Positions 2,294-62,052 of a DNA stretch of 64,000 nt are shown piece by piece (position 1 is the first letter of the stretch; every line of letters starts with the position of its first letter). Source of the DNA: an uncultured Thermodesulfobacteriota bacterium (GTDB taxonomy: Bacteria; Desulfobacterota; DSWW01); NCBI GenBank assembly GCA_964479535.1, contig CAYZMM010000035.1, forward strand, positions 159 through 64,158. Reading direction: 5' to 3'. Below the pieces are notes generated by a model. That model was not told the origin of the DNA, did not search any database, and saw only the letters and a program-made list of their open reading frames with translations. The translations under genes were made by a program, and so were the position numbers.

Positions 2294-2390
2294 CTCCACC
2301 TCCGAACGGGGGCCGTCCCCCCGGTTGGCTGAAGGGACACCAGTATACATCCGGCGCAGCAGGAGAACCAAGGGGGAGAGGAAAAGGAGC

Positions 2391-2420
2391 TTGACAAGGA
2401 CTCTTGAACCCTCCTACATT
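2391..2420 (+). promoter_or_regulatory. putative sigma70 promoter for the acyl-CoA synthetase operon
   Basis: TTGACA-18 nt-TACATT upstream of ATG 2454. Confidence 0.45.
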
Positions 2421-2453
2421 CCAGAACACGTAACCACGGATAAGGGGGGAACC

Positions 2454-17725: not shown

Positions 17726-17744
17726 GAACCTACGACCTTCGGGC

Positions 17745-18281
17745 CTAGAGAAAGAGGCTCTTGTAGAGATCGATCAGCAGGTAATGCAGTCCGACCCCTT
17801 CGCCCCAGACCAGCACACCATAGATCCCCAGGATGCCGGCCACAGAGGCGAGAATCGAAAACGAAGACAAGGCCCTCGTGTCTTCTATTCCGCCCCGCCT
17901 CTCGATGAGTCTGCAGAAGACGTCGCAAACGCCCATGATCAGGAACTGCCCTGCGATGGTTCCTATGATCAGGATATTGACCCCGTAGAAAAGCGACTCT
18001 GCAAACGTGAAGGCCTGGGCCACGTTGTACATCTCGATCCCGTTCCAGATCAGGGGGGTCGCTACGCAACCGATGATACGCTCTCCCAGGGAGGCGCCCC
18101 GGAAATAGCTCACAGGGTAAATCAGAAAAGAGCCGAAGCCGATGGACAGAAACATCACGATCCCCGACAGGGTCGCCACAGTGGCCGAGGAGTGGAAGTA
18201 GACGATTCTCGACAGGATCATGGCAACCAGCACGATCGCCGTGGGGACTACGATCCGTTGAGAGAAGCTGCTGTTCCGCAT
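17745..18281 (-). CDS. hypothetical integral membrane protein
   Basis: About 5 hydrophobic segments; 3 nt downstream of the sulfatase stop. Confidence 0.7.
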   Translation of the reverse strand: MRNSSFSQRIVVPTAIVLVAMILSRIVYFHSSATVATLSGIVMFLSIGFGSFLIYPVSYFRGASLGERIIGCVATPLIWNGIEMYNVAQAFTFAESLFYGVNILIIGTIAGQFLIMGVCDVFCRLIERRGGIEDTRALSSFSILASVAGILGIYGVLVWGEGVGLHYLLIDLYKSLFL

Positions 18282-18284
18282 CTT

Positions 18285-19712
18285 TCACCCCCGGTCTCTG
18301 TTCATGGACTCGAGCATCTTCCTCAACTCGATCGCCTTCGAAGCTCCTTCATCGGTGTTCATGAGGTTCCTCTTCTGAAGCGGATCCCTCTCCATGTCGT
18401 AGAGTTCGGATTTCAGCCGGCCTTCGTACTCGATGTACATGTATTTCCCGGTTCGGACCCCCTTCGTGGGGGGAACCCTGTACGGAAAGTCCTTGAAGTA
18501 CTCGTACAGAAACGCATCCCTCCCAGGCGCGGATGCCGAGCGAAGGATGGGCAGGAAGCTTGCTCCCTCCATGTCTCCGGGAATCGGCACCCCGGCAGCC
18601 TCCAGAAACGTCGGGGCCACGTCGATGTTCAGAACCATCTGTTCCGCCCGCCTCCCCGAATCCGGGATCACCCCCGGGAACCGAACGATGAAGGGCACCC
18701 GGATCGAATCGTCGTAGGGCCATCTGCCCGTTCCGAACAACTCGTGCTCACCCCAGAAGAAGCCGTTGTCTCCCGCAAAAACCACCAGGGTGTTCTCCGT
18801 CACGCCGAGTGCGTCCAGACGGTCCAGGAGGCGCCCGAGTTGCTCGTCCAGGGCTACGATGGTGCGGCAGTAGTCTCGGTAGAGTTGGGATGCGAATCCC
18901 TGGTTCGTCCCCTCGAACAGATGCCCCCGGGTCACCGGGATCCAGGGGTCGAAGCCCTCCGGAAAGGGAGGCTTCTCGCCCTCGTAAAGGTTCGTCAAAT
19001 GAGCAGGTGGCGTCCAGCGGTGGTGGACCGCCTTGTGAGCGAGATAGAGGCAGAACGGGGCATCCCGCTCCTTCTCGATGAATTCGATCGCGTGGTCGGT
19101 CAGCTCCTCTGTTATGTAAGGCTTGCGGGACGGCGTCTCCTCCCCGTTGACGATGAGCGGACAGTTCACGTATCTGCCCTGCCCCCCCTGAAGGGTAAAG
19201 GTGATGAAGGGGTCCACGTCCTTCAACTCCGGCAGCTTGCCCGGCATGTGCCATTTCCCGATGAAGGCCGTTTCGTAGCCGGCATCCTCGAGCATTTCGA
19301 GAAAGGTTCGATGGCTCCCATCCCAGGGCGTGAAATTGTTCCGGACCCCGTGGGTGTGAGCGTACTTCCCCGTGAGGAAGCTGGCCCTGCTCGGGCTGCA
19401 GAGCGAGGTCGTGACGAAGGCGTTGACGAACTGCACACCCCCCCGTGCCAGGCGGTCCATGTTCGGTGTCTCGAGGAAGGGATGTCCGGCGCAACCCATG
19501 AACTTGTAGTTCTGGTTGTCACTGAGAACGAATACGATGTTTGGTCTTTCCCCCGGCGAGCGGCTTGCCGCCGACGCGTGGGCCCCAAAAGACGGGAGGA
19601 AACAGACGGCCGTGACACCCAGCAGAAGCCCGCACAAATGCCTCTTCCAGCCTCTGTGCTTCCCCCTGCCCGTTCCACGCCGCGCTTGAAACAGGGCTTC
19701 CAACGGTCCCAT
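18285..19712 (-). CDS. Cys-type sulfatase (likely exported)
   Basis: PNIVFVLSD, CSPSRASFLTG, GKWH, GDNG. Confidence 0.9.
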   Translation of the reverse strand: MGPLEALFQARRGTGRGKHRGWKRHLCGLLLGVTAVCFLPSFGAHASAASRSPGERPNIVFVLSDNQNYKFMGCAGHPFLETPNMDRLARGGVQFVNAFVTTSLCSPSRASFLTGKYAHTHGVRNNFTPWDGSHRTFLEMLEDAGYETAFIGKWHMPGKLPELKDVDPFITFTLQGGQGRYVNCPLIVNGEETPSRKPYITEELTDHAIEFIEKERDAPFCLYLAHKAVHHRWTPPAHLTNLYEGEKPPFPEGFDPWIPVTRGHLFEGTNQGFASQLYRDYCRTIVALDEQLGRLLDRLDALGVTENTLVVFAGDNGFFWGEHELFGTGRWPYDDSIRVPFIVRFPGVIPDSGRRAEQMVLNIDVAPTFLEAAGVPIPGDMEGASFLPILRSASAPGRDAFLYEYFKDFPYRVPPTKGVRTGKYMYIEYEGRLKSELYDMERDPLQKRNLMNTDEGASKAIELRKMLESMNRDRG

Positions 19713-19915
19713 GTCCCCATCCTCCTCGACCCGCACGCCTGAAGGGTGCGGCCTTGTGATAGCATGCCTGCCAGCCGAATCGTATCCTTGGAGACGCCAA
19801 TCTACGGCGACCGGATCGGCGATGTCAATCGCGCCCCGGGGGGGGCCGATTTGAGGAATTCTACGTTTTTGATAATATAAAACAAAGAGAACAAAGGCGC
19901 AGGAGATACGGTTCG

Positions 19916-25212: not shown

Positions 25213-26346
25213 ATGAACCCGGCGGAGATCCACACCTTTGCCCGGAACGAAGTCTTCACCACCCTGGCGGATCGTTACCAGGGGCGAACCTTCTCCCGCG
25301 ATCTTTGGAAGAAGATGGCCCGGGAGGGCCTTTTCGGGCTGCTCACCCCTCCCCGCTTCGGCGGCTCCGACCAGGGCCCCATGGCGCTCATCGAAGCGAT
25401 CGAGGCCTTCATGCAGGGTGGGCAGGATCTCGGACTGTGCCTCTCCTGGCTGGACCACCTGCTGATTCATACCCACGTGATCTCCCGGTTCGGCTCCGAG
25501 CAGCAGAAGCGGAAATATCTGCCGGGGCTGGTCACGGGAGAACGGATCGGCGCCCTGGCAGCTTCGGAACCGGGAACAGGGGCCCATCCGGTGAAGATGA
25601 AGGCGAGTGCGGAGAAGCGGAACGGGACGTTCCGCCTCACCGCTCACAAGCTCTTCATCACCAACGGCCCCGTGGCAGATTCGATCATCGTCCTTGCCCG
25701 AACCGGACCCGCGCCTGGAAAGGACGGCATCTCCGCCTTGATCTTCGATACACGCTCTCCCGGCTTTCGGGTCAAGCAGAAGATGGACTTCGGGTACCTG
25801 CATACCTCGCCCCACGGGGAACTCCTCTTCGAGGATTGTGTCGTGCCGGCCGAGGATCTTCTGGGTGACCTCGGAGACGGCCACGTTCGCATATCGCGGG
25901 CGGTCTTCGGCTGGGAACGCTTCATGGGCATGGTGACCCTCACGGCCCATTTCCGTCTGATCCTGGACCGGACGATCCGGCTGCTCTCCGATTCCGGTTC
26001 ACCCATGGATGAGAAGGTCAGGCGTCTCGTTGCCGAGCTTCACATCACCCTGGAAGGCCTCGGCGAGTTTGCTCGAGGGCTGGCCTGCGAGGTCATCGAA
26101 CGGACCGACCTGGACAGACGTCTCACCGAACGTCTCCTGTTCACGGTCGGCCTGCTGACAGAATGGTGGGAACTCTTTGAACGGATACGGCAGGGCCTTG
26201 CCGAGAATCTACCCTTTCCCCTGGGAATCCTTCTTCAGGATGCACGCCTGCTCACGGTAAGCGGCCAGCTGTACGAACTCCAGAAATCCCGCGTCGCCGC
26301 GAATCTGCTCGAGGGAGTGCCAAAGCCAAAGGGGAATTCCGCTTAG
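25213..26346 (+). CDS. acyl-CoA dehydrogenase family protein with divergent C-terminus
   Basis: GSEQQK.KYLP, ALAASEPGTG, KLFITNGPVAD, L.FEDC.VP. Confidence 0.8.
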   Translation: MNPAEIHTFARNEVFTTLADRYQGRTFSRDLWKKMAREGLFGLLTPPRFGGSDQGPMALIEAIEAFMQGGQDLGLCLSWLDHLLIHTHVISRFGSEQQKRKYLPGLVTGERIGALAASEPGTGAHPVKMKASAEKRNGTFRLTAHKLFITNGPVADSIIVLARTGPAPGKDGISALIFDTRSPGFRVKQKMDFGYLHTSPHGELLFEDCVVPAEDLLGDLGDGHVRISRAVFGWERFMGMVTLTAHFRLILDRTIRLLSDSGSPMDEKVRRLVAELHITLEGLGEFARGLACEVIERTDLDRRLTERLLFTVGLLTEWWELFERIRQGLAENLPFPLGILLQDARLLTVSGQLYELQKSRVAANLLEGVPKPKGNSA

Positions 26347-26391
26347 GCGGTCGAGGAGGTCCCTGGCGACTCCCCAAAGGGAGGAGGGAAG

Positions 26392-27315
26392 ATGTTCGAC
26401 TCGTTTCAGGAGGTTCAGGAGCGCTTCGACTCGGAGCAGTACATCTGCAGCCAGGAAGCTGCAACCGTGGTGTATCTTGCCTGCAGGATGCAGAGGCCGC
26501 TGCTCGTAGAGGGGCCGGCGGGCGTGGGCAAGACCGATCTCGCCAAGGTCCTGGCCGCTTCTCAGGGAATGAACCTCATACGTCTGCAGTGCTACGAGGG
26601 CCTGGACGAAACAAAGGCACTCTATGAGTGGGAGTATTCCAAACAGCTTCTGTATACTCAGATACTGAAGGACAAGATCGCCCAGACGCTTCAGGAAGCG
26701 AGCACCCTGTCCGAGGCCGTGGAGACCGTCTCGACCGAGGAGGATGCCTTCTTCTCGGAGCGCTTCCTCGTGGCCCGGCCTCTTCTGAAGGCGATTCTGT
26801 CCGAAGAGCTCACGGTGCTTCTTATCGACGAGGTGGACAAGTCTGACCCGGAGTTCGAGGCCTTTCTGCTCGAGGTGCTGAGCGACTTCCAGGTGAGCAT
26901 TCCGGAAATCGGAACCCTGAAGGCCAGGCACATCCCCCTGGTCGTGCTCACCAGCAACAACAGCCGCGAGTTGAGCGACGCCCTCAAGCGCAGATGCTTC
27001 TACCTCTACCTCGATTTCCCCTCTACGGAACAGGAGGCGGCCATTCTGAGGAAGAAGGTGCCGGACCTCGACGACAGACTCGTCCTTCAGGTCTCCGAGG
27101 CGGTCGAATCGATCCGAAAGATGGATCTGAAGAAGCCGCCCAGCATCGGTGAAAGCCTGGACTGGGCCAAGGCCCTCGTCCTGCTCAACGCGGACCGGCT
27201 CGCAGCGGAAACGGTACGGCTCACGCTGCCCACCCTGATCAAGTACCCGGCGGATCGGGACAGGGTGCTCAAGGACATGGGCAGGGTCCTCCCCCGGGAG
27301 CGGGAAGAGAACTGA
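26392..27315 (+). CDS. MoxR AAA+ ATPase, CoxD-like
   Basis: EGPAGVGKT, RLQCYEGLD, LIDEVDK, LTSN..RELSDALKRRC. Confidence 0.92.
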   Translation: MFDSFQEVQERFDSEQYICSQEAATVVYLACRMQRPLLVEGPAGVGKTDLAKVLAASQGMNLIRLQCYEGLDETKALYEWEYSKQLLYTQILKDKIAQTLQEASTLSEAVETVSTEEDAFFSERFLVARPLLKAILSEELTVLLIDEVDKSDPEFEAFLLEVLSDFQVSIPEIGTLKARHIPLVVLTSNNSRELSDALKRRCFYLYLDFPSTEQEAAILRKKVPDLDDRLVLQVSEAVESIRKMDLKKPPSIGESLDWAKALVLLNADRLAAETVRLTLPTLIKYPADRDRVLKDMGRVLPREREEN

Positions 27316-27330
27316 CCCTGCAACGGACGG

Positions 27331-28719
27331 ATGGATATGGAAAGAGCCGTCCTCGCATTTGCGAACACCTTGCGAAAGAACGGTTTTCGAATCTCCGTGG
27401 ACGAGGTCCTCGTCGCTCTCGCCGGAATCGAATGGATCGATCTGGCAAGCCGGGAACAGTTCCGAACCCTCCTCAAGACGACCTGGGTCAAGAGCGCGGA
27501 TCAAATCGATGCATTCAACCGGCTTTTCGACCTCTTCTTCGCCGGTTCTTCGGCCCCTGAGGAGGCCCTCTCCGAACCACTGGCCCCGGAGGCTCTCGAA
27601 GGCCCCCTCAGGGACGTGCTCCATCAGGCGAACGGGCTCATCTCCCCCGAGTTCCGGCAGATGGTTCTCGAGGGAATCGCTGCCCTGGCGGCCACCCTGC
27701 CCGATGTGGGGGAAAGGGTGGGTCTCGGGCAGATCCGCTATCCGCTGCAGGTGAGTCACTATGCCCAGAAGATCCGGAGGGAGCTCGGAATGGACCGGTG
27801 GCCGGCCGAGGCAGAGCACCTGCTCTCCCTTCTGGAGCAGGCGGGCGCCTCGGGGGAAGAACGGTCGGCCATGGAGTCGGGAATCATGGAAAGGACCGAG
27901 CTCTTCGGTGAGATCATCCGCGACTTCGTGGCACGGCAGGCCGAGGCCCTGATCCGGACGGAGGATGCCCGCGATCTGCCGAGAGACATCATGGAGAAGG
28001 GATTCGGCGCCCTCACGCCCTGGGAAATACAGGCCATGCGGGAGGCGATCCGGGAACTGGTCAAGAAGATCCGCGACGAAGCCGCGCTGCGCCAGAAGCG
28101 AAGACAGAGAGGCCGGTTCGATCTCAAGCATACTCTGCGGAGAAGCCTCGCATACGGGGGCGTTCCCCTGGAGGTGGCGTTCCGCAAGCGGAAGAAGTCC
28201 AAGTCGCGGATCGTCACCCTCTGCGACGTCTCCAGCTCCGTCTGGAACGCCTCACGATTCATGCTGCACCTCCTGTATTCCCTGCAGGACCAATTCGACA
28301 AGGTCCGGAGCTTTGTCTTCGTGGACCGGCTCGGAGAGGTCACCGAGTGCTTCGAACGGCAAGAAGTGAACGAGGCGATCGAAACCGCCCTGCAGAAGGC
28401 CGACATCCCCTACAACCGTTACACGGACTATGGGAGCGTATTCAAGGAGTTCTTCGAAGACTACATGGATGCGGTGAACCGGAAGACCACGTTCATTGTG
28501 ATCGGGGACGGCAGGAACAACTTCTTCATGCCCGGAGACGAGTATCTGTCCCGGATACGTTCCCGTGCACGTCGAACGATCTGGCTCAACCCGGAAAACA
28601 GGGGGTTCTGGAAATTCGGTGACTCCATGATGCACCGCTACGAGAAGGAGTGCGACGAAGTCCGCGAGTGCCGGAACCTGAAGCAGCTCATCGAGTTCAT
28701 CAACCAGCTGACCCTGTAG
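27331..28719 (+). CDS. VWA-domain protein, CoxE-like
   Basis: CDVSSSV MIDAS, TDYG, IGDGRNN, WLNPE, ECRNL. Confidence 0.9.
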   Translation: MDMERAVLAFANTLRKNGFRISVDEVLVALAGIEWIDLASREQFRTLLKTTWVKSADQIDAFNRLFDLFFAGSSAPEEALSEPLAPEALEGPLRDVLHQANGLISPEFRQMVLEGIAALAATLPDVGERVGLGQIRYPLQVSHYAQKIRRELGMDRWPAEAEHLLSLLEQAGASGEERSAMESGIMERTELFGEIIRDFVARQAEALIRTEDARDLPRDIMEKGFGALTPWEIQAMREAIRELVKKIRDEAALRQKRRQRGRFDLKHTLRRSLAYGGVPLEVAFRKRKKSKSRIVTLCDVSSSVWNASRFMLHLLYSLQDQFDKVRSFVFVDRLGEVTECFERQEVNEAIETALQKADIPYNRYTDYGSVFKEFFEDYMDAVNRKTTFIVIGDGRNNFFMPGDEYLSRIRSRARRTIWLNPENRGFWKFGDSMMHRYEKECDEVRECRNLKQLIEFINQLTL

Positions 28720-45233: not shown

Positions 45234-47435
45234 TCAGGGAAGAGGATCGCACGCCCGCGGATCCGTGGTCACGGTCAGGCCCAGAAGCAACCCCTCGTTC
45301 ACGGCCACGAACTCCAGCAGGTGCAGAACCGCATGGCCCGTCACCGATATGGCCCCTACGCAGACCCGATCCCCTTCCGTGACGGTCTTGCCCGTGAGAT
45401 CCCAGGAGAACGCGTTTCTCGGAAGTTCCGGGACATCGTCTCGGGTAAGGTTGAAGGTGGGCTTCGGGTCCCCTTCTCCGGGAGGCTCCCCGTTCCAGAG
45501 GGCCTTGATCTCGTTGATCTCTGAAACGTTCGGGAATATGGTTGCCGCTACGACCAGACCGTCCGGGTCCACGATATCGCCGTTCTTCAAACCGGCCAGG
45601 ATCACGTTCGGGCCCACGGTCTCCGGCAGGGAGACCGCAATCTGGAAGATTTCCTGGTCCGCTTCCGGTTCGAAAGCGATCTCGATACCGGAGAACTCCG
45701 CTGTGGGCAGGTCTTCCGGGTCCTCTACCTTTTCTCTTGCCACCAGGACGCCGATCGTCTTGCTGATGTCCGGATCTGCAGCGTCGCCGGGATCGATGTG
45801 GATCCACTCCCAGGGGTCCCGTGGGTACTCTCCCCCCGCGTTCAGAGACTCCCAGTCCGGCGTCTCGGGCAGTGGGCAGGCCGCTTCGTTGCAGTAATCG
45901 CACCGCTCCTCCGGATCCTCGGGGTCCCCAGGCGCCCTGTAGGCACACCGGTAATGCGCCAACACGGGTGCGCCCCTGTCGTCGGCGGCCCGGGCACGCA
46001 CACGCACTTCCTCGCCGATGGGCAGCTGCGCCTCCCGGTTCGTGTCGAGACGGGGGAAGATCTCCAGAACCTGAAGCTCCGGAACCTGATTCTCCGCCGT
46101 TGAGGGAGGGAATAGGACGGGGAGGGTCGTTCTCTTCCAGTTCCCCTGCATGTCGAGGGCCACCACCCCGATCGTGTTCGGAATCCCCCCATCCTCCACA
46201 GGTGCGTCCACCACCTCATCCCCGTTCCAATCCGAAACAAAGACGATGGTTGCCGTGAAGCCGCCGGCAAGGGTGATCTGGTCCGGGTTGAAGTGGAGGA
46301 ACCGGCCGGCCGTGCCTCCCGGCCCCTCGGCAAGGCTGAAACCCAGCGTCCGAACCTCACCGCTGAAACTCTCCACGGTGCCGACCACGTTCTCCGCAGC
46401 GGAAGAGGCCTCGATCAACTCCTCCTCTTCCCCGTCCACCTCCAGGTTCGGCTCCTGCGTAACCACCTCGGGCGAGAAGATGAACTCGCGCAACACCTCT
46501 GAAGAACGAAAGACCCCGGTCTTCTGATCCGGTACGTCCTCGGCCGACACCGCGAAGCGAAAGACCGGTGCGTCGTCGTCGCCGGTCATCCCCTGCCGAT
46601 CCCTCGGATCGAAGAGCTGGAACTGTTCTTCGAAGTTCCCTGACGTTGCATCCCAGTTCAGGAAGGAATCGTCGTTCCACTTCACCAGAGATCGCCAAAG
46701 GGCGGTCGGTGGACCGTCCATTTCCACCCCTTCGGGAGCCTCGAGCCCAATTTGGAATACTTCATCGCCCGCGCCCAGGGCCAGAGCGTCGCCGGAGCGC
46801 AAGGGGGTGTCGAAACCTCCGCCGGTCGTTGTCTTCTTCCTGAGGGACCAGAGAAACGGATTCGGTTCCTCCGTCAGGCTGGTCACCCGCAGGATACGGT
46901 ACTCCTCCAGAATTTGGATCGGATCCCCCTCAGAGTCCGGAACCTGGAGGTCCTGCGCCTCCGAGACCTGAACCTGCAGCTCGTGTTCCTCGCCTTCGGC
47001 TGTCGACAGAGTCAACCGGAACAGGTCCCCTCGAATGAGTTTCGAGGCAGGCAGCAGGGGAGCACACTCGAAGAAGCCCGGGCCGGTCTCCTCGCATCTC
47101 ATCTCACATTCGTAGAACTGGTTCTCCGCTTCGGTGCACTCGGTGAAGCCCTGCAGATCCACATCCGCGCGCTCGCCGATCCAGACGATTCGAGGGGAGA
47201 CCACCGCCGTGTTGTCGGAGATGTTTCCTTGAACGCGGACGGGCGACTGAGCGGCGATCCCGCCGTTCTCGAGGGGCACCCAGGCCCCCTCCTCTCCCGG
47301 GGGAGAGTCCCAGTAGGAGAGACGCACATTCGTGATCTGCGGCGCCTCGGGGTTACCGCAGCCATAGGACAAGAGGGAAGCTAGCAAGAACGCCAAGCCG
47401 ATGCCGATCGCTGCCCGATGGTGCCTCCTTCGCAT
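45234..47435 (-). CDS. large acidic hypothetical lipoprotein
   Basis: Lipobox SYGC; 733 aa, Glu/Asp/Pro-rich, beta-rich, paired Cys. Confidence 0.75.
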   Translation of the reverse strand: MRRRHHRAAIGIGLAFLLASLLSYGCGNPEAPQITNVRLSYWDSPPGEEGAWVPLENGGIAAQSPVRVQGNISDNTAVVSPRIVWIGERADVDLQGFTECTEAENQFYECEMRCEETGPGFFECAPLLPASKLIRGDLFRLTLSTAEGEEHELQVQVSEAQDLQVPDSEGDPIQILEEYRILRVTSLTEEPNPFLWSLRKKTTTGGGFDTPLRSGDALALGAGDEVFQIGLEAPEGVEMDGPPTALWRSLVKWNDDSFLNWDATSGNFEEQFQLFDPRDRQGMTGDDDAPVFRFAVSAEDVPDQKTGVFRSSEVLREFIFSPEVVTQEPNLEVDGEEEELIEASSAAENVVGTVESFSGEVRTLGFSLAEGPGGTAGRFLHFNPDQITLAGGFTATIVFVSDWNGDEVVDAPVEDGGIPNTIGVVALDMQGNWKRTTLPVLFPPSTAENQVPELQVLEIFPRLDTNREAQLPIGEEVRVRARAADDRGAPVLAHYRCAYRAPGDPEDPEERCDYCNEAACPLPETPDWESLNAGGEYPRDPWEWIHIDPGDAADPDISKTIGVLVAREKVEDPEDLPTAEFSGIEIAFEPEADQEIFQIAVSLPETVGPNVILAGLKNGDIVDPDGLVVAATIFPNVSEINEIKALWNGEPPGEGDPKPTFNLTRDDVPELPRNAFSWDLTGKTVTEGDRVCVGAISVTGHAVLHLLEFVAVNEGLLLGLTVTTDPRACDPLP

Positions 47436-49445: not shown

Positions 49446-49703
49446 CTAGATCTCCATGTTCGTGTAGGGCATCAACGCCAGATGCCGTGCCCGTTTGACG
49501 GCCAACGTGATCTTCCGCTGATGTTTCGCACAGTTGCCGGAAATCCGCCTCGGGATGATCTTGCCCCTTTCGGTGATGAAATATCTGAGCTGCCTCGGGT
49601 CCTTGTAGTTGATCTCCAGCGTCGCGTCCGCACAGAACCGGCACACCTTCTTCCGGACGTAGAGCCTTCTTTTCGCCTTCCGAGCTTCCTTTCGACTGAT
49701 CAT
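49446..49703 (-). CDS. rpsR: 30S ribosomal protein S18 (Zn-binding form)
   Basis: [23 protein letters not shown]. Confidence 0.97.
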
Positions 49704-49733
49704 CTGTGTGGTCCTCTCCCCGACGGATGGATT

Positions 49734-50324
49734 CTACGCTTCTACCGGCTTTTCGCCCTGCCCCTCGCCTTCCTCTGCCGCCTGCGGCCCGGTTTCAGGG
49801 CGCTCCCCTTCCGGCGTCCTTGCCGCATCCGCCACGGGTTCTGCCGTCGACTCTTCCTCCTCCTTCTCGGACGAGGTCTCGGCAGCGGCCGCCTCTTTTT
49901 CCCTGGCTTCCTTTTCCGCAGCGGCCTTTGCCGCAGCCTCCTTCTCCGCAGCTTCCTTCGCGGCCGCCTCTCTCGCCGCCTCCTTGTCCCTTTCCTCCTC
50001 CTGCTCCTGCTTGGCAGCTTCCAGGTCTACGCGCTCATCCGTCTTGACCGTAAGGAATCGGTAGACATCCTCGAGCATCCGCATGTGTCTTTCCAGCTCG
50101 GCGACGATCTGTGCCGTTCCCACGAAGTCGAGCAGGAAATAGTGGCCTTTCTGATGGTTCTTGATCGGATAGGCCAGCCTGCGAACGCCCCAGTCCTCCC
50201 TCTTGACGCGGATTCCTCCGCCCTTCTCCACGACGCCGTCCAGTCGATCGAGGATCTCCTTCTTCTTGCCTTCATCCGAGTCGGACGGAAGGATGAAGAC
50301 CGTTTGGTACCTCCGATTGCGCAT
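49734..50324 (-). CDS. rpsF: 30S ribosomal protein S6 with long Ala/Glu/Lys tail
   Basis: YQTVFIL, WGVRRLAYPI, GHY; AAGGAGG RBS. Confidence 0.93.
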   Translation of the reverse strand: MRNRRYQTVFILPSDSDEGKKKEILDRLDGVVEKGGGIRVKREDWGVRRLAYPIKNHQKGHYFLLDFVGTAQIVAELERHMRMLEDVYRFLTVKTDERVDLEAAKQEQEEERDKEAAREAAAKEAAEKEAAAKAAAEKEAREKEAAAAETSSEKEEEESTAEPVADAARTPEGERPETGPQAAEEGEGQGEKPVEA

Positions 50325-50325
50325 T

Positions 50326-50402
50326 TTCCCTCCTTCTGGTCTCATGGCCCCGCACCGCAGACCGGGTCCCCTGGAGAGAACCGACGGGTGGGAGCAAGGG
50401 GG
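50326..50402 (-). promoter_or_regulatory. putative S6:S18-binding rpsF leader RNA
   Basis: Minus strand CCCCUUGCUCCC...GGGGCCAUGAGACCAGAAGGAGG; stem can pair with the RBS, with a CCR bulge. Confidence 0.55.
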
Positions 50403-50504
50403 TTCACGTTCCGGCGACACCCTGTCGCCCTTCCACGGCTCCTTCTCGCCCAAACCATGCAATGTACCAGTCTCGTCTTGATTTTACAAGATCCACGCGG
50501 GGGC

Positions 50505-51602
50505 TCACTTCTGAAACCTGATCCGGACGATGTCCCCGTCCTGCACTGTGTAGTCCCTGCCCTCCACATGTGTGATGCCCCGCCTGCGGGCCTCCTCTTC
50601 CGTGCCTGCTCCGCAGAAGTCCTCGAAGTGCATGACCTCCGCCCGTATGAACCCGCGCTGCATATCGGAATGGATCCTGCCCGCGGCCTGGTACACGGTC
50701 TGACCCTTGCGCAGCGTCCAGGCGCGGACTTCGATCCCCACCAAGGTGTAGAAAGTGATCAGATCCAACAGCCGGTAGCCCTCCTCGACCATGCGCACGA
50801 GGCCGGAAGGGCCCCATTCCATCTCCGCCCTGAAACGTTCCCTCTCGGCCGGATCCAGGCCGAGAACCTCCGTCTCCACGGCGGCACACAGGGGGAGGAA
50901 AACGGAGTCCACCTCCTGCACCCTCGCCTGCACTTCCTCCACGAGCCTGTCCTGCCCCGGAATCTGATCTTCCCCGAGGTTGAGCACGAACAGCACCGGC
51001 CGGTCCGTCAGGAAGCCCCACTCCTTGGTGCGCCCCAGAAGGTCCGTCCCGATATCCGCCGAGTGCCTCAGCGGGATTCCGCGGTTCAGCGATTCCAGCA
51101 CCTGCTCCAGCAGCTGCATCTCTTCCCGGGCCTCCTTCTGGCCGACCCTGGCAAGCCTTTCCGCCTTCTCCTTGCGTCGTTCGGCCACTTCGATGTCGGC
51201 GAGAACGAGCTCGGTCTGTACGATCTGTATGTCACGGACAGGGTCCGGGCTGCCTGTCACGTGGACGATCTCGGGATCTTCAAACAACCTGACCACATGG
51301 ACGATCGCGTCCACCGCCCGGATATGCCCCAGAAAGGCGTTCCCGAGGCCCTCACCCCGGCTCGCGCCCTCCACAAGCCCCGCCACGTCCAGGAACTCGA
51401 GCCGGGTCGGCGTGAGCTTCTCGGGCTTCAACCGCTCTCCCAGAATACGCAGCCGATCGTCCGGTACGGCCACCCGCCCCCGGTTCGGGTCTACCGTACA
51501 GAAGGGATAGTTCGATGCTTCGGCACCGCCCCCTGCAAGGGCGTTGAAGACCGTCGACTTGCCCACATTCGGCAGGCCGACTATCCCGCAAGTAAAGCCC
51601 AT
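50505..51602 (-). CDS. ychF: redox-regulated ATPase YchF
   Basis: [34 protein letters not shown]. Confidence 0.95.
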
Positions 51603-51655
51603 CGATTCTTGCCTTGCCCGTTCCGTCAAGCAAAATCGAGTCGGAACACAGATCG

Positions 51656-51697
51656 AAAAAAGGCTCGTCCGGGGGTTGCGCTTCCCGGACGAGCCTT
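51656..51697 (-). terminator. rho-independent terminator downstream of hppA
   Basis: AAGGCTCGTCCGGG/CCCGGACGAGCCTT stem followed by a U tract on the minus strand. Confidence 0.75.
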
Positions 51698-51698
51698 A

Positions 51699-51860
51699 GT
51701 ACTCCATCTCATAAATACGGTGGCATTCGGATGCCGATCCATCCCGGCAGGCTGCGTTGCTCGTCGGTTCAAGACTCCCGGTATTCGCCCTCCTCGCGCC
51801 TTGCCTGCCGGGCGCCTCGGCATCCTCGGTGCGTTACCCTATATTGTTGCGATGGAGTAC
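51699..51860. mobile_element. MITE with GTACTCCATC TIRs and TTA target duplication
   Basis: TTA-GTACTCCATCTCA...TGCGATGGAGTAC-TTA; 162 bp; no convincing coding region. Confidence 0.75.
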
Positions 51861-51914
51861 TTAGGATCTCACGCGCCTCAACCCTGAAGGGTGAAGAGGC
51901 CAACTCTCCAAGAG

Positions 51915-56866: not shown

Positions 56867-57154
56867 TTACGTCTCGGTGCCGGTCGGAGAATCGCGCAGC
56901 CGATCCAGCTCCTTTCGGTATTCGTCGAGCACTCTATCTTCGATCATCCTTCGCGTGGAATTGTTCAGCGGATGTGCGGTGTCCTTGAACGTACCGTCTT
57001 TGCGCTTCTTGCTGGGCATGGCCACGAACAGCCCCGTGTTTCCGTGAATGATCTTCAAGTCCCTTACAATGAAACAATCATCGAAGATGATGGTTGCGTA
57101 TCCCTTCAACCTCTCCTCGCTCACCGGGAACACCCTGACTTCCGTGATCTTCAT
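56867..57154 (-). CDS. spoVG: SpoVG family nucleic-acid-binding protein
   Basis: MKITEVRV, FDDCFIV, GLFVAMPS, FKDTAHP. Confidence 0.92.
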   Translation of the reverse strand: MKITEVRVFPVSEERLKGYATIIFDDCFIVRDLKIIHGNTGLFVAMPSKKRKDGTFKDTAHPLNNSTRRMIEDRVLDEYRKELDRLRDSPTGTET

Positions 57155-57663
57155 GTTGTCCACTCCCTTGCGCGCCTTGGCTTTTGCGAGTCCATTCGGC
57201 CGGGTCGTATTTACAAAGCTGTTTTCATGATCCCTGAAGACAGGGGAAAATGGGCACACCCTCAGCCCATCGCCCTGTCGTTTCGAGCAAGCCCTGTGGC
57301 CTGACAATGCTCTACTTCCGGACGGATGGAATACCCTTCTCCGGACTCCCGTCGCAAGGAAGACCTGATGGAAAGGCTAATAGATAAATTGCCTTTTTAT
57401 GTTTGGCGGTAGATTAGGGTTTTTGCCCGGAATTGTCAACAAGAAAATCCGTCAAGTGCCCTGTTCGAAAAGCAAGGAGTCCCGAGATGGGTAACAGGGT
57501 TTCCGGCACTGCCTCGGGAGGTGCGAATGTGATTATAGACTCGAAGGGCAGGTCCATGGCCGAATCGACGACCGGCCCTTGCATTCCGGGATAGGTCTTC
57601 ATATCATATTGCCTCAACGAACATGCTAAAACATCTTTTTCAAACAATTCACCCGTCGGGGGC

Positions 57664-59766
57664 ATGGACACTGCGCCTGTGGAAGGGAATCGCAAGTACC
57701 TGATCACCGGAGGCGGCACCGCGGGGCACGTCTATCCGGGGCTCGCCCTGGCGGAAGGAATCCGAAGACAGGAGAGGGATGCGGAATTCCTGTTCGTGGG
57801 AACACGTGGAGGGGCGGAAGAGAGGATCGTTCCCGCTGAAGGGCACGCCCTCCGGACGCTTTCCGTCAAGGGACTCCCGCCGGGGGCGGGCCCTCACGTC
57901 CTGCTTCGGACGGTCTGGTTCCTCGCGCTATCACTCCTGCAGGGCGTCGGGCTCGTTCTGCGGTTCAAGCCCCGAGCGATCATCGGCACAGGAGGGTATG
58001 CGAGTGCACCCGTGCTCCTGGGGGCCATCCTCCTGAGGTCCCTCCGGCTCTGGAAGGGTGTTCTGAGCGTTCACGAGGCAAACATCATCCCGGGCAGATT
58101 CAACCGGTGGGCTTCCCGGTGGGTCGACTTCACAGGCACGAGCTTCCCGGAGACTCTCCGATTCCTGACACCAGGCAAGGCCCTCTGGACCGGCTATCCG
58201 ATCCGGAAGGATCTGGAGGCATCCTCGAAACGGAGAGGGACGGGATGCTCTGAGAAGAAACGACGCCTGGGCATTCCGGCCGAGGGACGCGTCGTGCTCG
58301 TCTTCGGAGGCAGTTCCGGAGCGCGAACGATCAACCGGGCCGTTGTGGAGGCCCTTCCCCGGCTGCTCGCGGACCCGGACCTCTACGTCTTCCATGCCAC
58401 CGGGCACCCCCAGGGAGATTATGATCCGGCGGCGGAATTTCGCGACATGCTGGCCGATCTCTCTTTGAACCGGTCGGACCTCGAAAAACGGTATCGGCAG
58501 ACGCCGTACCTGGACCACATCGATCACTACTATGAAATCGCCGATCTCGTGGTCTGCCGGGCTGGAGCCGGCGCCGTCTGGGAGGTCGCCTCCTACTCCG
58601 TCCCGGCAATTCTCATACCGAAGTCGAACCTTCCCGGAGATCATCAGGTCAAGAACGCCTACTTCCTCGTACGACGGGGCAAGGCCCGGATTCTGTTCGA
58701 GAGGAAATCCCTGCCGCCGGATGCCGGGGACCAGGATACGATCGATGCCTCCGCCCTGGTGGATACGATTTCCGCACTCCTCGCAGACCCGGACCCGGCC
58801 GAAGACACAGGACACGAAGCCGAAGACGGCCCCCTGCTCTCCGGGGACCTGTCGTTCTGTGACCTGCTCCGCAACCTGCGGGAAAGGAAGCAAGCCGGCA
58901 GGAGAGAGGAGGTGACCGCACCCGTCTCGGGAAGGCAACATCCTTCCGAGGACAGCATGGCCACGAGGATCGAGTGGCTGGGGACCGACGCGCTTCTGGC
59001 GTACGTTGAGGGGAAACGGAAGCACAACCAGGATCTGACCGAAGGCGGAAAGGCCTATTTGAGATACAAGACCGATCAACTGCTCGGCTCATCCCTCTGG
59101 CAGGAAAGGAACACGGGCGTCAAGCTCGTGGGACTCATCGGGTACAAGGAACGATTGCCGACGTTGTTGCACTTCATCGTGGACCGCACACCGGTCGCCT
59201 GGCATCGGAGACTCCTCGGGGGGGACTTCGAACAGGTGGGATTCATTCGCCGGAATGCACTGCAGGCGATCTGGCGAATCAACGAATACGGACCGGACGT
59301 CCGAAACGCCCTTCTCGTGGCCTTGAACGATCCCTACTACGAGGTCAGATCCTGGGCGGCCCGCGCAATCCACCGGCTGTCCGGTTCCGTGGGGGAGGAT
59401 GCCGAACTGGTGGCCCTGTTGAGGAAGAACCTGAAGGATCGCTGGTTCGAAGTCGTGGTATGCTCTCTGAGGGCCCTTGGAAGGGTCACGGAAGACCCGG
59501 CGATCCTGTCCGACCTCGTCCCTCTGCTCGCACACAGGAACTGGAAGGTACAGGACGCGGCCGTACGTTGCCTCATGAGACTCATGCAGTCCGGTGTCGT
59601 GCACCTCCCGCCGGAAGCGGAGGAATGGATGCACAAGATCCCGATGAAAGGCCTCGACTTCTTTCCCCGCTTTCCGCTCAAGCAGACCTGGGACGATTTC
59701 CAGCGCCTCGTGTCCGAACGGATGGAGTGCGACAACCCATCGAACACGGAAAAAGGGGCTTTTTGA
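57664..59766 (+). CDS. MurG-like GT28 glycosyltransferase fused to a C-terminal HEAT-repeat domain
   Basis: GGGTAGH, GTGGY, HEAN..PG..N, FGGSSGA..IN, RAGA, DHQ..NA; C-terminal LNDPYYEVR..AA.A, LKDRWFEV, LAHRNWKVQ.AA. Confidence 0.85.
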   Translation: MDTAPVEGNRKYLITGGGTAGHVYPGLALAEGIRRQERDAEFLFVGTRGGAEERIVPAEGHALRTLSVKGLPPGAGPHVLLRTVWFLALSLLQGVGLVLRFKPRAIIGTGGYASAPVLLGAILLRSLRLWKGVLSVHEANIIPGRFNRWASRWVDFTGTSFPETLRFLTPGKALWTGYPIRKDLEASSKRRGTGCSEKKRRLGIPAEGRVVLVFGGSSGARTINRAVVEALPRLLADPDLYVFHATGHPQGDYDPAAEFRDMLADLSLNRSDLEKRYRQTPYLDHIDHYYEIADLVVCRAGAGAVWEVASYSVPAILIPKSNLPGDHQVKNAYFLVRRGKARILFERKSLPPDAGDQDTIDASALVDTISALLADPDPAEDTGHEAEDGPLLSGDLSFCDLLRNLRERKQAGRREEVTAPVSGRQHPSEDSMATRIEWLGTDALLAYVEGKRKHNQDLTEGGKAYLRYKTDQLLGSSLWQERNTGVKLVGLIGYKERLPTLLHFIVDRTPVAWHRRLLGGDFEQVGFIRRNALQAIWRINEYGPDVRNALLVALNDPYYEVRSWAARAIHRLSGSVGEDAELVALLRKNLKDRWFEVVVCSLRALGRVTEDPAILSDLVPLLAHRNWKVQDAAVRCLMRLMQSGVVHLPPEAEEWMHKIPMKGLDFFPRFPLKQTWDDFQRLVSERMECDNPSNTEKGAF

Positions 59767-59767
59767 G

Positions 59768-60880
59768 ATGTTTCATGCGCTTTACAGCTGGTTCTACGAC
59801 CCCGAAGGGCCCTTTTCGTTCATCCGGCTCTTCAACTACATAAGCAGCCGCGCCATTTTCGCCATCATCACCTCCTTCACGTTCACGCTCTTCGCGGGGA
59901 GGCCGCTGATCCGGGCCCTCTACAGAATGGGCATGCGGGACACGGAGCGGGGGGAGATGACGGAAGCGCAAGATCACAAGAAGGGCGGCACCCCGACCAT
60001 GGGCGGCGTCATCCTTTTCTCGGGGACCATGCTGTCCGCACTCCTCTGGTGCGACCTGACGAGCCCCTTCATCCTCCTTCTCCTGTTCGCCTCCGTCTGG
60101 TTCTTCACCCTCGGATTCTGGGACGACAGCCGCAAGATCCGGCATCAGGACAGTGACAAGGGGCTGTCCCGGGGAATGAAGTATCTGGGGCAGGTCTCCT
60201 TCGGGCTCCTCTTCAGCCTGCTCTTTCTGCATCCGGCCACTTCGCCCGTCCCCTCCCAGGTCGTCTCGAAGCTCTACCTCCCCTTTTACAAATATCCGGT
60301 GGTGGACCTGTCCTGGGGATACGCCCTCGTGATCGTGCTCTTCGTCGTCTACGCCGCGAACGCCATCAATTTCGCTGACGGCATGGACGGGCTCGCCGTC
60401 GTGCCTTCCGCATATGCCATCGGCGTCTACGGCGTTTTCGCGTACGTCCTCGGAAACGTGAAGATAAGCGACTACCTGATGTTCGACTATCTTCCTGGAT
60501 GCGGGGAGGTGACCATCCTTTGCGCCGCACTGCTCGGCGCCTGCGTAGGGTTTCTGTGGTACAACAGCTACCCCGCCGAGGTCTTCATGGGGGATACGGG
60601 CTCCATGTTTCTGGGCGGCGTTCTCGGAACGATGGTCGTGCTCCTGAAGCAGGAAGTACTCTTCCTCCTCGTGGGCGGCATCTTCCTCGCAGAGATCCTG
60701 TCGGTCGTGGTCCAGGACTGGATCGGAATTCAGCGCACGGGCAGGAGGTTCCTCTACCGTGCTCCCCTTCACCACACCTTTCAGTACCAGGGCCTCGCGG
60801 AGACGAAGATCACCGTGCGTTTCTGGATTATCTCGGGCGTTCTTGCGCTGGTGGCCCTCGCTTCGCTCAAGATCCGGTAG
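59768..60880 (+). CDS. mraY: phospho-N-acetylmuramoyl-pentapeptide transferase (MraY-like)
   Basis: GTPTMGG, WDD, NAINFADGMDGL, YPAEVFMGDTGS, APLHH, ETKITVRFWI. Confidence 0.85.
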   Translation: MFHALYSWFYDPEGPFSFIRLFNYISSRAIFAIITSFTFTLFAGRPLIRALYRMGMRDTERGEMTEAQDHKKGGTPTMGGVILFSGTMLSALLWCDLTSPFILLLLFASVWFFTLGFWDDSRKIRHQDSDKGLSRGMKYLGQVSFGLLFSLLFLHPATSPVPSQVVSKLYLPFYKYPVVDLSWGYALVIVLFVVYAANAINFADGMDGLAVVPSAYAIGVYGVFAYVLGNVKISDYLMFDYLPGCGEVTILCAALLGACVGFLWYNSYPAEVFMGDTGSMFLGGVLGTMVVLLKQEVLFLLVGGIFLAEILSVVVQDWIGIQRTGRRFLYRAPLHHTFQYQGLAETKITVRFWIISGVLALVALASLKIR

Positions 60881-60891
60881 CCCCTTTCTTG

Positions 60892-60921
60892 TTGACACGG
60901 GCTTTCCCGTCCGGCTAAGCT
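60892..60921 (+). promoter_or_regulatory. putative sigma70 promoter of asd
   Basis: TTGACA-18 nt-TAAGCT. Confidence 0.5.
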
Positions 60922-60996
60922 TTAAGGTTGGTGTTTTTCACGAGTCATCGTTCCCGGATCGAACGCTGCAACCGCAAGCAGAAAGGGCCTTGACCC

Positions 60997-62052
60997 ATGG
61001 CCGGATACAACGTAGCCGTCGTCGGCGCCACGGGCGCTGTGGGGCAGGAGATGCTCTCCATCCTCGAGGAACGGAAGTTCCCCGTGAAATCCCTGCGCCT
61101 GCTCGCATCGAAACGCTCCATTGGGAAGTCCTTCCCCTTCCGCGGGAAACCCGTGGAAGTGCAGGAACTAAAACGAACCGCCTTCAAGGGCGTTGATATC
61201 GCCCTCTTCTCTGCGGGGGGCGACCGTAGCAAGCATTTTGCTCCGGCGGCCGTCGAGGCGGGTGCCGTGGTGATCGACAACAGTTCCGCCTTCCGGATGG
61301 ACCCGGGTGTGCCCCTTGTCGTACCGGAGATCAACGCCGGCGAGATCCGGAAGCACAAGGGCATCATCGCCAACCCGAACTGCACGACCATCGTCACCCT
61401 GATGGGCCTGTACCCCCTGCGTGCCTACGGCATCCGAAGGGTGATTCTGTCGAGCTACCAGGCCGTTTCCGGGGCCGGCGCATGGGCCATCGAGGAACTC
61501 CGGAGGCAGACCCTCACGTGGGCCATTCAGGAGCTGAAGAACGAAGCGCTCGGCACAGAGGAGGAAGCGGTCCTGCGGGCCGAGAAGTTCCCGCACCCGA
61601 TCGCATTCAACCTGATTCCGCACATCGACAAGTTCCTGGACGGGGGCTACACAAAGGAAGAGCTGAAATGCCTGCACGAATCCAGGAAGATCCTCAACCA
61701 GCCGGATCTCCAGGTGTCGGCGACGACGGTCCGTGTGCCCGTCTTCCGTTCCCACTCCGTTTCGGCACACATCGAAACGGACAGGCCCCTGTCCGTGGCA
61801 AAGGCTCGTTCTCTGATCCGTCAGGCAAAGGGCGTTCAGGTCTACGACCAGCCGGGGAGATCGAAATACCCCACCCCGGTCCAGGTGGCCGGCCAGGACG
61901 ATTGTCTGGTCGGCAGGATTCGGAAAGATGAAAGCGTATCGAACGGATTGTGCCTCTGGATCGTAGGAGACCAGCTCCGCAAGGGGGCAGCCCTGAATGC
62001 CGTCCAGATCGCGGAGACCCTGCACGGAGTCACCTCGAAGCGAAAGAGCTGA
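60997..62052 (+). CDS. asd: aspartate-semialdehyde dehydrogenase
   Basis: VGATGAVG, DNSSAFRM, ANPNCTT, YQAVSGAG, RKGAALN. Confidence 0.96.
   Translation: MAGYNVAVVGATGAVGQEMLSILEERKFPVKSLRLLASKRSIGKSFPFRGKPVEVQELKRTAFKGVDIALFSAGGDRSKHFAPAAVEAGAVVIDNSSAFRMDPGVPLVVPEINAGEIRKHKGIIANPNCTTIVTLMGLYPLRAYGIRRVILSSYQAVSGAGAWAIEELRRQTLTWAIQELKNEALGTEEEAVLRAEKFPHPIAFNLIPHIDKFLDGGYTKEELKCLHESRKILNQPDLQVSATTVRVPVFRSHSVSAHIETDRPLSVAKARSLIRQAKGVQVYDQPGRSKYPTPVQVAGQDDCLVGRIRKDESVSNGLCLWIVGDQLRKGAALNAVQIAETLHGVTSKRKS

Follow-up and report, generated by a model that had tools for sequence, protein, structure and literature searches.

A MurG-HEAT and MraY gene cassette outside the dcw cluster of an uncultured Thermodesulfobacteriota bacterium and its occurrence in other phyla

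Two adjacent genes, encoding a MurG-like glycosyltransferase fused to HEAT repeats and an MraY, were analysed in a 64,000-nucleotide stretch of DNA (the window) from an uncultured Thermodesulfobacteriota bacterium (GenBank assembly GCA_964479535.1, contig CAYZMM010000035.1, positions 159 to 64,158 of the forward strand). Positions 57664–60880 of the window are filled by two open reading frames (ORFs) on the plus strand, of 700 and 370 amino acids (aa). The pair almost certainly provides the housekeeping MraY and MurG of the organism. It is well supported that the pair is a cassette found across phyla, with a dedicated HEAT domain, a co-inherited clade of MraY and repeated fusion or linkage to MurJ. 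Taken as a whole, we regard it as probable that this is a relocated housekeeping cassette in which the HEAT domain docks MurG to partners in the membrane. The layout described by a first-pass annotation of the window, namely a 700-aa protein of MurG, linker and HEAT repeats followed after 1 nt by an MraY, was confirmed by the ORFs, the Pfam matches and the gene junction.

Single-copy status of the pair

The genome of the window (G000; 6.45 Mb, 101 contigs, 98.85% complete) was searched for other members of both families. In the mraY family search the window gene scored 281.3 bits and there was otherwise one match, of 88.3 bits; in the murG family search the window gene scored 200.6 bits and the next matches 28.8 and 25.2 bits. 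The division and cell wall (dcw) cluster of this genome lies on contig C8 in the order rsmH-ftsI-murE-murF-murD-ftsW-murC-ftsQ-ftsA-ftsZ, and is thus without exactly mraY and murG: murD follows murF, and murC follows ftsW. Because there are no other copies and the cluster is missing exactly these two genes, the pair has been relocated and not duplicated. When the dcw proteins of the same genome were compared with the 64-kb window by tblastn, no dcw gene was found anywhere in it. This result and the gene coordinates bear out the earlier description of a pair without dcw flanks, in the order murG-mraY and divergent from spoVG.

The 88.3-bit match (G000:C10:81297-82937, L002:1474-3114) is the only other gene of the MraY superfamily in the genome. 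It encodes a 546-aa WecA-like GT4 protein with about 200 extra C-terminal residues, which scores 179.8 bits against TIGR02380, below the cut-off. Directly after ftsZ on contig C8 lies a gene for a B12-binding radical SAM protein (TIGR03960-like, 439 bits, just under the cut-off; L007:1300-3018, minus strand).

Five other cassette genomes, from different groups, were tested; in all of them no MraY besides that of the cassette was over the cut-off, and no other MurG was strong. Of these, G042 has a dcw cluster without mraY and murG, as in G000. In the remaining four (G041, G043, G044 and G045) murD has no dcw gene beside it over about 8 kb (a contig end truncates the G044 locus), and the dcw cluster looks dispersed anyway. 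An otherwise intact dcw cluster was therefore rejected as a general rule: it holds for G000 and G042 and fails in the other four. A murG outside dcw was likewise rejected as unusual in itself, as many Lachnospiraceae and other Bacillota loci have a plain murG without a dcw neighbour at E≤1e-8. Since plain murG away from dcw is common in the Bacillota loci returned, position outside the cluster alone is not special. The loci L067-L069, L071, L072, L074, L077-L079, L082-L086, L088, L090, L091 and L093-L097 hold such a plain murG of about 350 aa without HEAT; they are mostly titled Lachnospiraceae or other Bacillota, L082 is titled Bacteroides thetaiotaomicron, and the flanks cover 7 kb or less, several being shorter.

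Sequence and predicted structure of the two proteins

The catalytic part of the 700-aa protein was identified by two Pfam families of glycosyltransferase family 28 (GT28): the N-terminal Glyco_transf_28 domain (PF03033) at aa 13–155 (1.8e-23, 83.6 bits against a gathering cut-off of 26.2) and Glyco_tran_28_C (PF04101) at aa 210–349 (1.7e-26, 93.7 bits against a gathering cut-off of 22). The top Foldseek matches were solved MurG structures, 3s2u (E 3e-17, TMt 0.83) and 1f0k (TMt 0.79). A phmmer alignment to 3s2u (4.8e-32 over aa 12–348) keeps the residues of the glycine-rich loop and the pocket. Conservation was assessed in an alignment of 25 family members with 36–76% identity to the window protein. 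GGGTAGH (aa 16–22), GGS (aa 215–217), E307 and H327-Q328 were invariant or nearly so in the 25 sequences; from the E. coli MurG structures we take the glycine-rich loops, E307 and H327-Q328 to be positions of the pocket for uridine diphosphate N-acetylglucosamine (UDP-GlcNAc). The window MurG probably transfers GlcNAc to lipid I, yielding lipid II; a role as lipid II synthase is assigned to it as the genome, which has murC, murD, murE, murF, ftsW and murJ, offers no other candidate.

The full-length AlphaFold model (predicted local distance difference test, pLDDT, 84.5; predicted template modelling score, pTM, 0.81) consists of a MurG fold (about aa 10–411), a low-confidence linker (about aa 412–440) and a helical solenoid (aa 441–700), and suggests that the position of the solenoid on MurG is fixed. 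The pLDDT falls below 50 at aa 379–385, 420–423 and 425–432 and is also low at the chain ends. Neither the length nor the sequence of the linker is conserved in the 25-sequence alignment. An in-frame ATG at 58957 behind GAGGA, from which a separate HEAT product had been thought possible in the first pass, is present in the gene. The Met432 that it encodes is, however, absent from the other 24 aligned sequences, in which the position is Val, Ala or others even in close relatives. A separate HEAT product from this start is therefore unsupported for this gene.

The C-terminal domain matched HEAT_2 (PF13646) at aa 528–595 (5.5e-12, 46.3 bits against a cut-off of 27.7) and HEAT (PF02985) at aa 548–573 (1.7e-08, 34.4 bits against a cut-off of 23.5). 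In the 25-sequence alignment, which extends across phyla, the HEAT part is conserved to the same degree as the catalytic part. Eighteen of its residues are invariant in all 25 sequences (W479, N483, K487, G490, D507, G519, F527, R529, R530, N531, D556, Y558, E560, R562, A566, F666, P668 and F670), and R529, R530, D556, Y558 and E560 are still invariant once the split and MurJ-fused forms described below are aligned. In the models the strongest block, GGDFxQVGFIRRN, forms a loop that has short strands and lies between helices of the solenoid; the insertion loop at aa 507–531 may be a binding site. A further block, DFxPxFPLK, has a lower local model confidence (block means of 59–71) and is a candidate partner-binding motif. 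The model of the HEAT domain alone reached a pLDDT of 92.1 and a pTM of 0.88. In a wide VIA-align search its structural matches were designed alphaRep/HEAT proteins (Z 17–18.1), CpcE/F (Z 15.1) and YibA (Z 14.8), and a sequence search of the PDB with the domain gave designed alphaRep proteins only (best 1.4e-09).

The window MraY passes TIGR00445 (281.2 bits against a cut-off of 192.05), and aa 16–370 align to the solved E. coli MraY 8g01 (6.6e-74). D119, D120, N198, N201, D204, G205, D207, G208, L209 and D276 were invariant in 31 of 31 cassette MraYs, as was H335. The stretches with the catalytic Asp residues align to VDDYRK and FMGDVGS of E. coli MraY; we take the catalytic aspartates to be the DD after the third transmembrane helix and the D of GDxGS, and NxxNxxDGxDGL to be a functional loop. 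The motif readings ADGMDG and HHTFQ of the first-pass annotation were reproduced, as the mraY product contains NFADGMDGLA and LHHTFQ. In loop E the window MraY has HHT and the cassette clade a consensus of HHxfQ, in which the third His is not kept, against a consensus of HHHFE in dcw-type MraYs; the HHH motif is typical of canonical MraY but lies outside the curated TIGR00445 definition.

Sixteen positions are conserved in cassette MraYs and rare in dcw-type ones (R20, L21, R53, D58, W111, F145, P160, P177, V220, G222, F299, I319, G320, R326, R331 and Q339). Five of them (I319, G320, R326, R331 and Q339), the lost third His and a one-residue insertion fall in the stretch around the HH motif. 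R331 is Met in all dcw rows, and Q339 is Glu in 97% of them; R53 and D58 stand just before the GTPTMGG motif, and 93% of dcw rows have Gln in place of D58. Presumably the HH-motif stretch is cytoplasmic loop E, and that before GTPTMGG cytoplasmic loop A. Given the invariant catalytic residues, the altered ADGMDG and HHTFQ motifs are therefore signatures of a clade and not signs of decay. Compared with canonical MraY, the cassette MraY also has a small insertion at P160. The Myxococcales cassette MraY (L020:8973-10352, and L021), of about 460 aa, carries an insertion of about 80 residues near the P160 position, which is in frame and without stops.

The first-pass annotation had proposed complex modelling. 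Prediction of a complex between MraY and HEAT aa 445–700 gave a score of 0.38 (runs of 0.38, 0.37 and 0.44), with 0.00 for the best of three controls; agreement between the runs covers at least 78% of contacts, and the partner pLDDT is at least 71. Of 157 solved complexes, 116 reach the mark set for such predictions, as do 2 of 215 mismatched pairs, counts that are rough here since custom alignments were used. At scores of 0.60 or less the mark is reached by only 18 of the 157 solved complexes and by both of the passing mismatches. The modelling thus lends weak support to a contact between HEAT and MraY.

Distribution, descent and gene context of the cassette

A collection of 5.8 billion proteins yielded 445 matches among 8000 scored candidates. 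All but two of the 120 matches listed carry GT28 and HEAT Pfam domains, and most measure 650–790 aa; as nearly all listed homologues carry both, the MurG-HEAT fusion is not due to chance. The names found among the matches listed were few, 'glycosyltransferase' or MurG, from metagenome-assembled genomes (MAGs) of Thermodesulfobacteriota, Latescibacteria, Gemmatimonadetes and Acidobacteria, and no cultured organism was present among the names of cluster members. A scan of one genome per species returned 80 public loci, 32 of which hold MurG with HEAT. MraY comes immediately after it in 31 of the 32, and the 32nd locus ends about 345 nt past the stop. The gap between murG-HEAT and mraY is commonly −4, −1, +1 or +7 nt where the start can be placed, and 447 nt in one locus. 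None of murF, murD, ftsW, murC and ftsZ was found within 7 kb in any of the 32 loci. The search for the GT28-HEAT architecture and its neighbours that the first pass had suggested thus revealed a conserved cassette with MraY outside dcw. The loci are labelled Myxococcota, Acidobacteriota (including Thermoanaerobaculia), Aminicenantes, Fermentibacteria, Syntrophobacterales, Gemmatimonadetes and Latescibacterota, with one Bacteroidaceae-labelled MAG; the cassette spans at least six phyla.

Co-inheritance was assessed in 401 sampled genomes of the window's phylum. Of these, 23 have the HEAT domain; they belong to 7 families and include all 7 genomes of the window's own family. An MraY matching the window protein at E≤1e-92 was present in 22 of the 23 genomes with HEAT and in none of the 378 without; in the 23rd (G005) the MraY is cut to 87 residues by a contig end. 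By coordinates, murG-HEAT and mraY lie side by side in 21 of these 23 genomes, whereas the order murF-mraY-murD, the usual one, is that of the other genomes of the phylum. Each genome of a 41-genome set gave one MraY match at E≤1e-20, and so did each of 61 genomes in a sample of the phylum of G042 (the latter includes G429 and G454, which are flagged as unpublished and enter that count only). Among the best-scoring 30 loci of the G042-phylum sample, 7 have HEAT upstream of mraY, and 23 have a Mur ligase upstream (murF, in one case murE) and murD downstream. In G036 (L016, L107) mraY adjoins a gene of 187 aa that starts with a hydrophobic stretch; judging by its first residues, it may be LemA-like.

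The two gene trees that the first-pass annotation had called for place both cassette genes in single, supported clades apart from the canonical genes of the same phyla. The MraY tree comprised 69 rows; the duplicate genomes L009-L015, L021 and L132 and rows shorter than 300 aa or with stops were left out, and the dcw sets were thinned to every second row. In this tree 39 HEAT-associated MraYs and the unlinked one of G036 form a single clade (SH-like approximate likelihood ratio test, SH-aLRT, 100; stem length 0.75), outside which lie 29 dcw-type MraYs, including those of the window's phylum and of Acidobacteriota. The MurG-domain tree had 57 rows, that is, 38 cassette sequences and 19 plain ones picked by hand from 48; the 38 cassette rows form one clade (SH-aLRT 99). 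Both trees were obtained by a quick search (IQ-TREE for MraY) and are unrooted. In both, the Syntrophobacterales join Acidobacteriota rows, and L047 groups with L055 (Latescibacterota with Gemmatimonadota), L038 with L041, L029 with L048 and L031 with L045. A tree constrained to keep all 19 MraYs of the window's phylum together as one clade is worse by 211.5 log-likelihood units (lnL; approximately unbiased (AU) test, p-AU 1e-07). No genome with both cassette-type and dcw-type genes was seen among those examined. Most likely, judging from the trees, the pair was transferred between phyla and displaced the resident mraY and murG.

In several lineages the cassette includes the lipid II flippase MurJ. 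MurG-MurJ-HEAT is a single ORF of about 1260 aa in two loci (L031:6989-10768, an Aminicenantes MAG, and L045:6956-10732), and mraY overlaps its end by 4 nt in both. The order MurJ-MurG-HEAT is found in a single ORF of 1202 aa in a Syntrophobacterales MAG (L044:5426-9031), where the locus ends about 345 nt past the stop and shows no mraY. The genes form an operon murG-HEAT, mraY, murJ in three Acidobacteriota loci and an operon murJ, murG-HEAT, mraY in one Fermentibacteria locus. A split form was found in two independent assemblies (L029:7010-10035 and L048:6965-9963), with a murG of 382–386 aa, a HEAT gene of 229–234 aa starting 13–20 nt later, and mraY. When the HEAT domain alone was searched exhaustively and without a profile, 1692 matches were obtained, 39 of them at E≤1e-30, and Pfam was run on 19. 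These 19 comprised six MurG-MurJ-HEAT clusters (1292–1333 aa), one MurJ-MurG-HEAT (P0147, 1219 aa), one MurJ-HEAT (771 aa), two MurG-HEAT (758 and 781 aa), six stand-alone HEAT proteins (245–283 aa), two fragments and P0266. The last, of 1110 aa, has MurG, about 550 residues without a Pfam match at 1e-5 and then HEAT; a highly diverged MurJ, or some other membrane module, may make up its middle part. As known from solved structures, the two ends of MurJ are cytoplasmic and those of MraY periplasmic. Because of this topology MurG, MurJ and HEAT can be chained in one polypeptide and MraY cannot, and an MraY that is always separate yet tightly coupled fits its periplasmic ends.

The features of the locus are collected in Table 1. 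Upstream, on the minus strand, lie genes for an H+-pyrophosphatase, pth, ribosomal protein L25, prs and the divergent spoVG (56867–57307); asd and a patatin-like gene lie downstream of mraY. A scan of 57200–61100 with the sigma-70 consensus gave 0 promoter-like sites, against 0.8 expected, and so no promoter was located. Terminator-like sites in the same region numbered 4, against 3.9 expected, and none is 3' of mraY. Elsewhere in the window, five ORFs of 640–865 aa have no Pfam match at 1e-12 (1689-4283(−), 17667-19739(+), 26212-28131(−), 45237-47435(−) and 49482-51884(+)); some of them may be wrong-frame ORFs of GC-rich DNA. At 12922-14241(+) lies a gene for a 440-aa protein whose repeated motifs are of the MopE type and putatively metal-binding (PF11617, 2.3e-24).

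Table 1. Features of the murG-HEAT and mraY locus (positions in the window)
Feature	Position	Strand	Remarks
murG-HEAT gene	57664-59766	+	700 aa (P0001)
mraY	59768-60880	+	370 aa (P0002), cassette-type clade
Gene junction	59764-59770	+	stop TGA 59764-59766, single base, ATG at 59768
MurG (GT28, GT-B fold) catalytic part	57691-58818	+	about aa 10-385
Last MurG helix and variable charged linker	58819-58983	+	about aa 386-440
HEAT-type alpha-solenoid domain	58984-59763	+	aa 441-700
Non-repeat insertion loop, DRTP...GGDFxQVGFIRRN	59182-59256	+	aa 507-531; most conserved HEAT piece
C-terminal motif DFxPxFPLK	59656-59682	+	aa 665-673; conserved
GAGGA (58948-58952), 4 nt, in-frame ATG 58957 (Met432)	58948-58959	+	
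HHT replacing canonical HHH, MraY loop E	60770-60778	+	
Intergenic region between divergent spoVG and murG-HEAT	57308-57663	.	presumed promoter region

Role of the HEAT domain and comparison with known systems

In the mechanism that we propose, MraY is the lipid I synthase and MurG the lipid II synthase, the two being the sole housekeeping pair; across several phyla, scattered lineages have the cassette in place of an mraY and murG within dcw, most likely through horizontal transfer. The C-terminal HEAT solenoid would serve as a protein-binding scaffold that holds the peripheral MurG against MraY and, in many lineages, the flippase MurJ, so that within one assembly lipid I may be synthesised, turned into lipid II and passed on to be flipped. 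A non-covalent docking domain encoded just upstream of mraY could be a way round the ends of MraY, which do not lend themselves to fusion. That HEAT docks MurG to MraY and/or MurJ, forming an assembly for lipid II synthesis and export, we hold to have a nearly even chance of being right. More tentatively, a lipid II factory of MraY, MurG and, where it is linked, MurJ could be organised around HEAT as its hub, and the cassette could be a self-contained unit that spread between phyla and displaced the dcw-embedded genes. A scaffolded MurG was one of the two possibilities offered by the first-pass annotation, and it fits the conservation of HEAT, its travelling together with the MraY clade and the MurJ fusions.

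A number of observations weigh against this reading. The window MurG scores 199 bits against TIGR01133, below the cut-off of 250.25, with only profile positions 6–311 of 353 aligned, and the five other cassette MurGs tested are also under the cut-off (204–244 bits), which for this equivalog is a naming threshold and not a biochemical feature; because of these scores the protein is filed as a GT28 protein acting as MurG and not as a TIGR01133 equivalog. The binding partner of HEAT is proposed from sequence comparisons, and structure searches, including the ESM Atlas, give generic solenoid or HEAT matches only. The score of the MraY-HEAT complex is in the weak band of the tool, which reports no interface. 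The changes around the MraY HH motif are near the active site and could reflect altered chemistry instead of a docking surface. In G000, murJ is unlinked, lying on contig C2 and absent from the window, and the best matches of its product outside the family are 53–54% identical and come from HEAT-less genomes of the phylum. This murJ looks vertically inherited, so that linkage to MurJ does not hold universally; for G000 the idea that murJ was transferred along with the cassette was rejected, as its MurJ is closest to those of HEAT-less genomes. Adjacency is not obligatory either, since G036 and G079, which are assemblies from a single genus, carry the two genes on separate contigs. Finally, the trees are unrooted and from quick searches, the group put to the AU test was chosen with the tree already known, and formally an ancient paralogy followed by reciprocal loss is still an alternative to transfer.

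Four other explanations were considered. The first-pass annotation had favoured a second, paralogous lipid I/II module making an alternative precursor beside the dcw genes, as suggested by a pair outside dcw, the order murG-mraY, the ADGMDG and HHTFQ motifs and, in our analysis, a MurG under the TIGR01133 cut-off. This is now hardly credible: a genome that is 98.85% complete contains no other credible mraY or murG, its dcw cluster lacks exactly both, the copies are also the sole ones in the five other cassette genomes, and the 41- and 61-genome samples have a single MraY match per genome. Among the points that the same annotation had raised against its own proposal, the pair did turn out to be the only copies, whereas the HEAT part proved to be conserved and no earlier description of the architecture was found. 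Also improbable, if less so, is a cassette that makes a chemically different lipid II, in its nucleotide substrate or its carrier lipid, with HEAT as part of the specificity. The changes by the MraY active-site loop (loss of the third His, M to R at 331, E to Q at 339 and the one-residue insertion) are clade-wide and speak for it, but the catalytic Asp and NxxNxxDGxDGL are invariant, as are the residues of the MurG nucleotide-sugar pocket (with the roles that we take them to have); murC, murD, murE and murF are ordinary, and the pair is the only peptidoglycan route in these genomes.

The other two explanations keep a housekeeping pair. HEAT might act only in cis on MurG, by stabilising or autoinhibiting it or by aiding its binding to the membrane or to lipid I, without a protein partner. 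The full-length pTM of 0.81 suggests that the solenoid packs on MurG, and the invariant basic loop GFIRRN could bind phosphates of lipid or nucleotide; in MurG-MurJ-HEAT, however, the domain is joined to the MurJ end, some 650 residues away from MurG, L029 and L048 encode it as a gene of its own, and the linked, long-branched MraY clade is left unexplained, so that we consider a purely cis-acting domain doubtful. Alternatively, HEAT could recruit MurG to the divisome or elongasome (FtsA, MreB, or pairs of SEDS proteins and penicillin-binding proteins, PBPs) or to a regulator, replacing positional cues lost outside dcw. HEAT solenoids are general protein-binding scaffolds, MurG has been reported to interact with cytoskeletal and division proteins in model bacteria, and the predicted MraY-HEAT complex is weak. 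Recruitment of this kind is nevertheless unlikely, if slightly less so than action in cis alone, as it explains neither the one-to-one co-occurrence with a special MraY clade nor the MurJ fusions in two orders and the position directly before mraY. Docking of MurG to membrane partners within a relocated housekeeping cassette remains the reading that we prefer.

The membrane steps of peptidoglycan precursor synthesis performed by MraY, MurG and MurJ are essential, and the three proteins are antibiotic targets; it is debated whether they form a physical complex. The cassette offers natural evidence on this question, with its conserved docking-type domain, co-inherited MraY clade and polypeptides that combine MurG, MurJ and HEAT. 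Taken together, the domain, the clade and the fused polypeptides make the hypothesis of a complex directly testable by co-purification and cryo-electron microscopy. If HEAT is indeed a hub, the MurG-MurJ-HEAT and MurJ-MurG-HEAT fusions would be ready-made material for solving the long-postulated MraY-MurG-MurJ complex. The cassette further indicates that a foreign pair can take over from two core dcw genes at once, as in at least six phyla; this matters where dcw gene order or MraY trees are used as deep phylogenetic markers. In databases these proteins are named only 'glycosyltransferase' or MurG, and no description of MurG-HEAT, MurG-MurJ-HEAT or other MurJ-containing fusions was found in the literature searched. 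Overall, the cassette consists of known enzymes in an undescribed, widespread architecture and gene arrangement.

Canonical MurG (E. coli 1f0k/1nlm, P. aeruginosa 3s2u) has the same GT28 GT-B fold and N-terminal glycine-rich loop as the window protein, which differs in its approximately 315 extra residues (linker and HEAT), its separate clade and the position of its gene directly before mraY. With canonical MraY (E. coli 8g01, Aquifex 4j72) the window MraY shares the catalytic aspartates, NxxNxxDGxDGL and an end-to-end alignment; it differs in its long-stem clade, the HHxfQ-type motif, R331, D58, HEAT upstream and the lack of murF/murD neighbours. Bacterial PBS-type HEAT proteins and designed alphaRep (CpcE/F 5n3u, YibA 1oyz, alphaRep 6fsq) have the same repeat type and solenoid, but unlike the cassette HEAT none of them is tied to cell-wall synthesis; the GGDFxQVGFIRRN loop and DFxPxFPLK tail were defined from alignments of the cassette family alone. 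The mycobacterial MurJ (MviN) is regulated by a cytoplasmic pseudokinase extension, likewise an accessory cytoplasmic domain for partners or regulators on a membrane protein of the lipid II pathway; there, however, the domain is a pseudokinase and not HEAT, the host protein is mostly a different one, and no MraY clade is linked to it.

Natural chimeras of Mur proteins have been surveyed, namely MurE-MurF, MurC-Ddl, MurC-MurB, MurG-MurC and MurD-FtsW, with a mention of MraY-MurG, and such fusions were taken as evidence for multi-enzyme complexes (PMC10214165). That survey excluded unidentified species, the group in which cassette proteins occur. Its main text has no occurrence of 'HEAT' and has MurJ only in a figure legend, and MurG-HEAT, MurG-MurJ-HEAT and MurJ-MurG-HEAT are not among the chimera types in the main text, although its supplement might list further types (PMC10214165). 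In actinobacteria an alternative lipid II synthase, MglA, can stand in for MurG and resembles the cassette MurG in being a MurG-like enzyme encoded outside dcw; there, MglA is an extra paralogue beside murG, whereas the cassette gene is the only copy and carries HEAT (PMC8092295).

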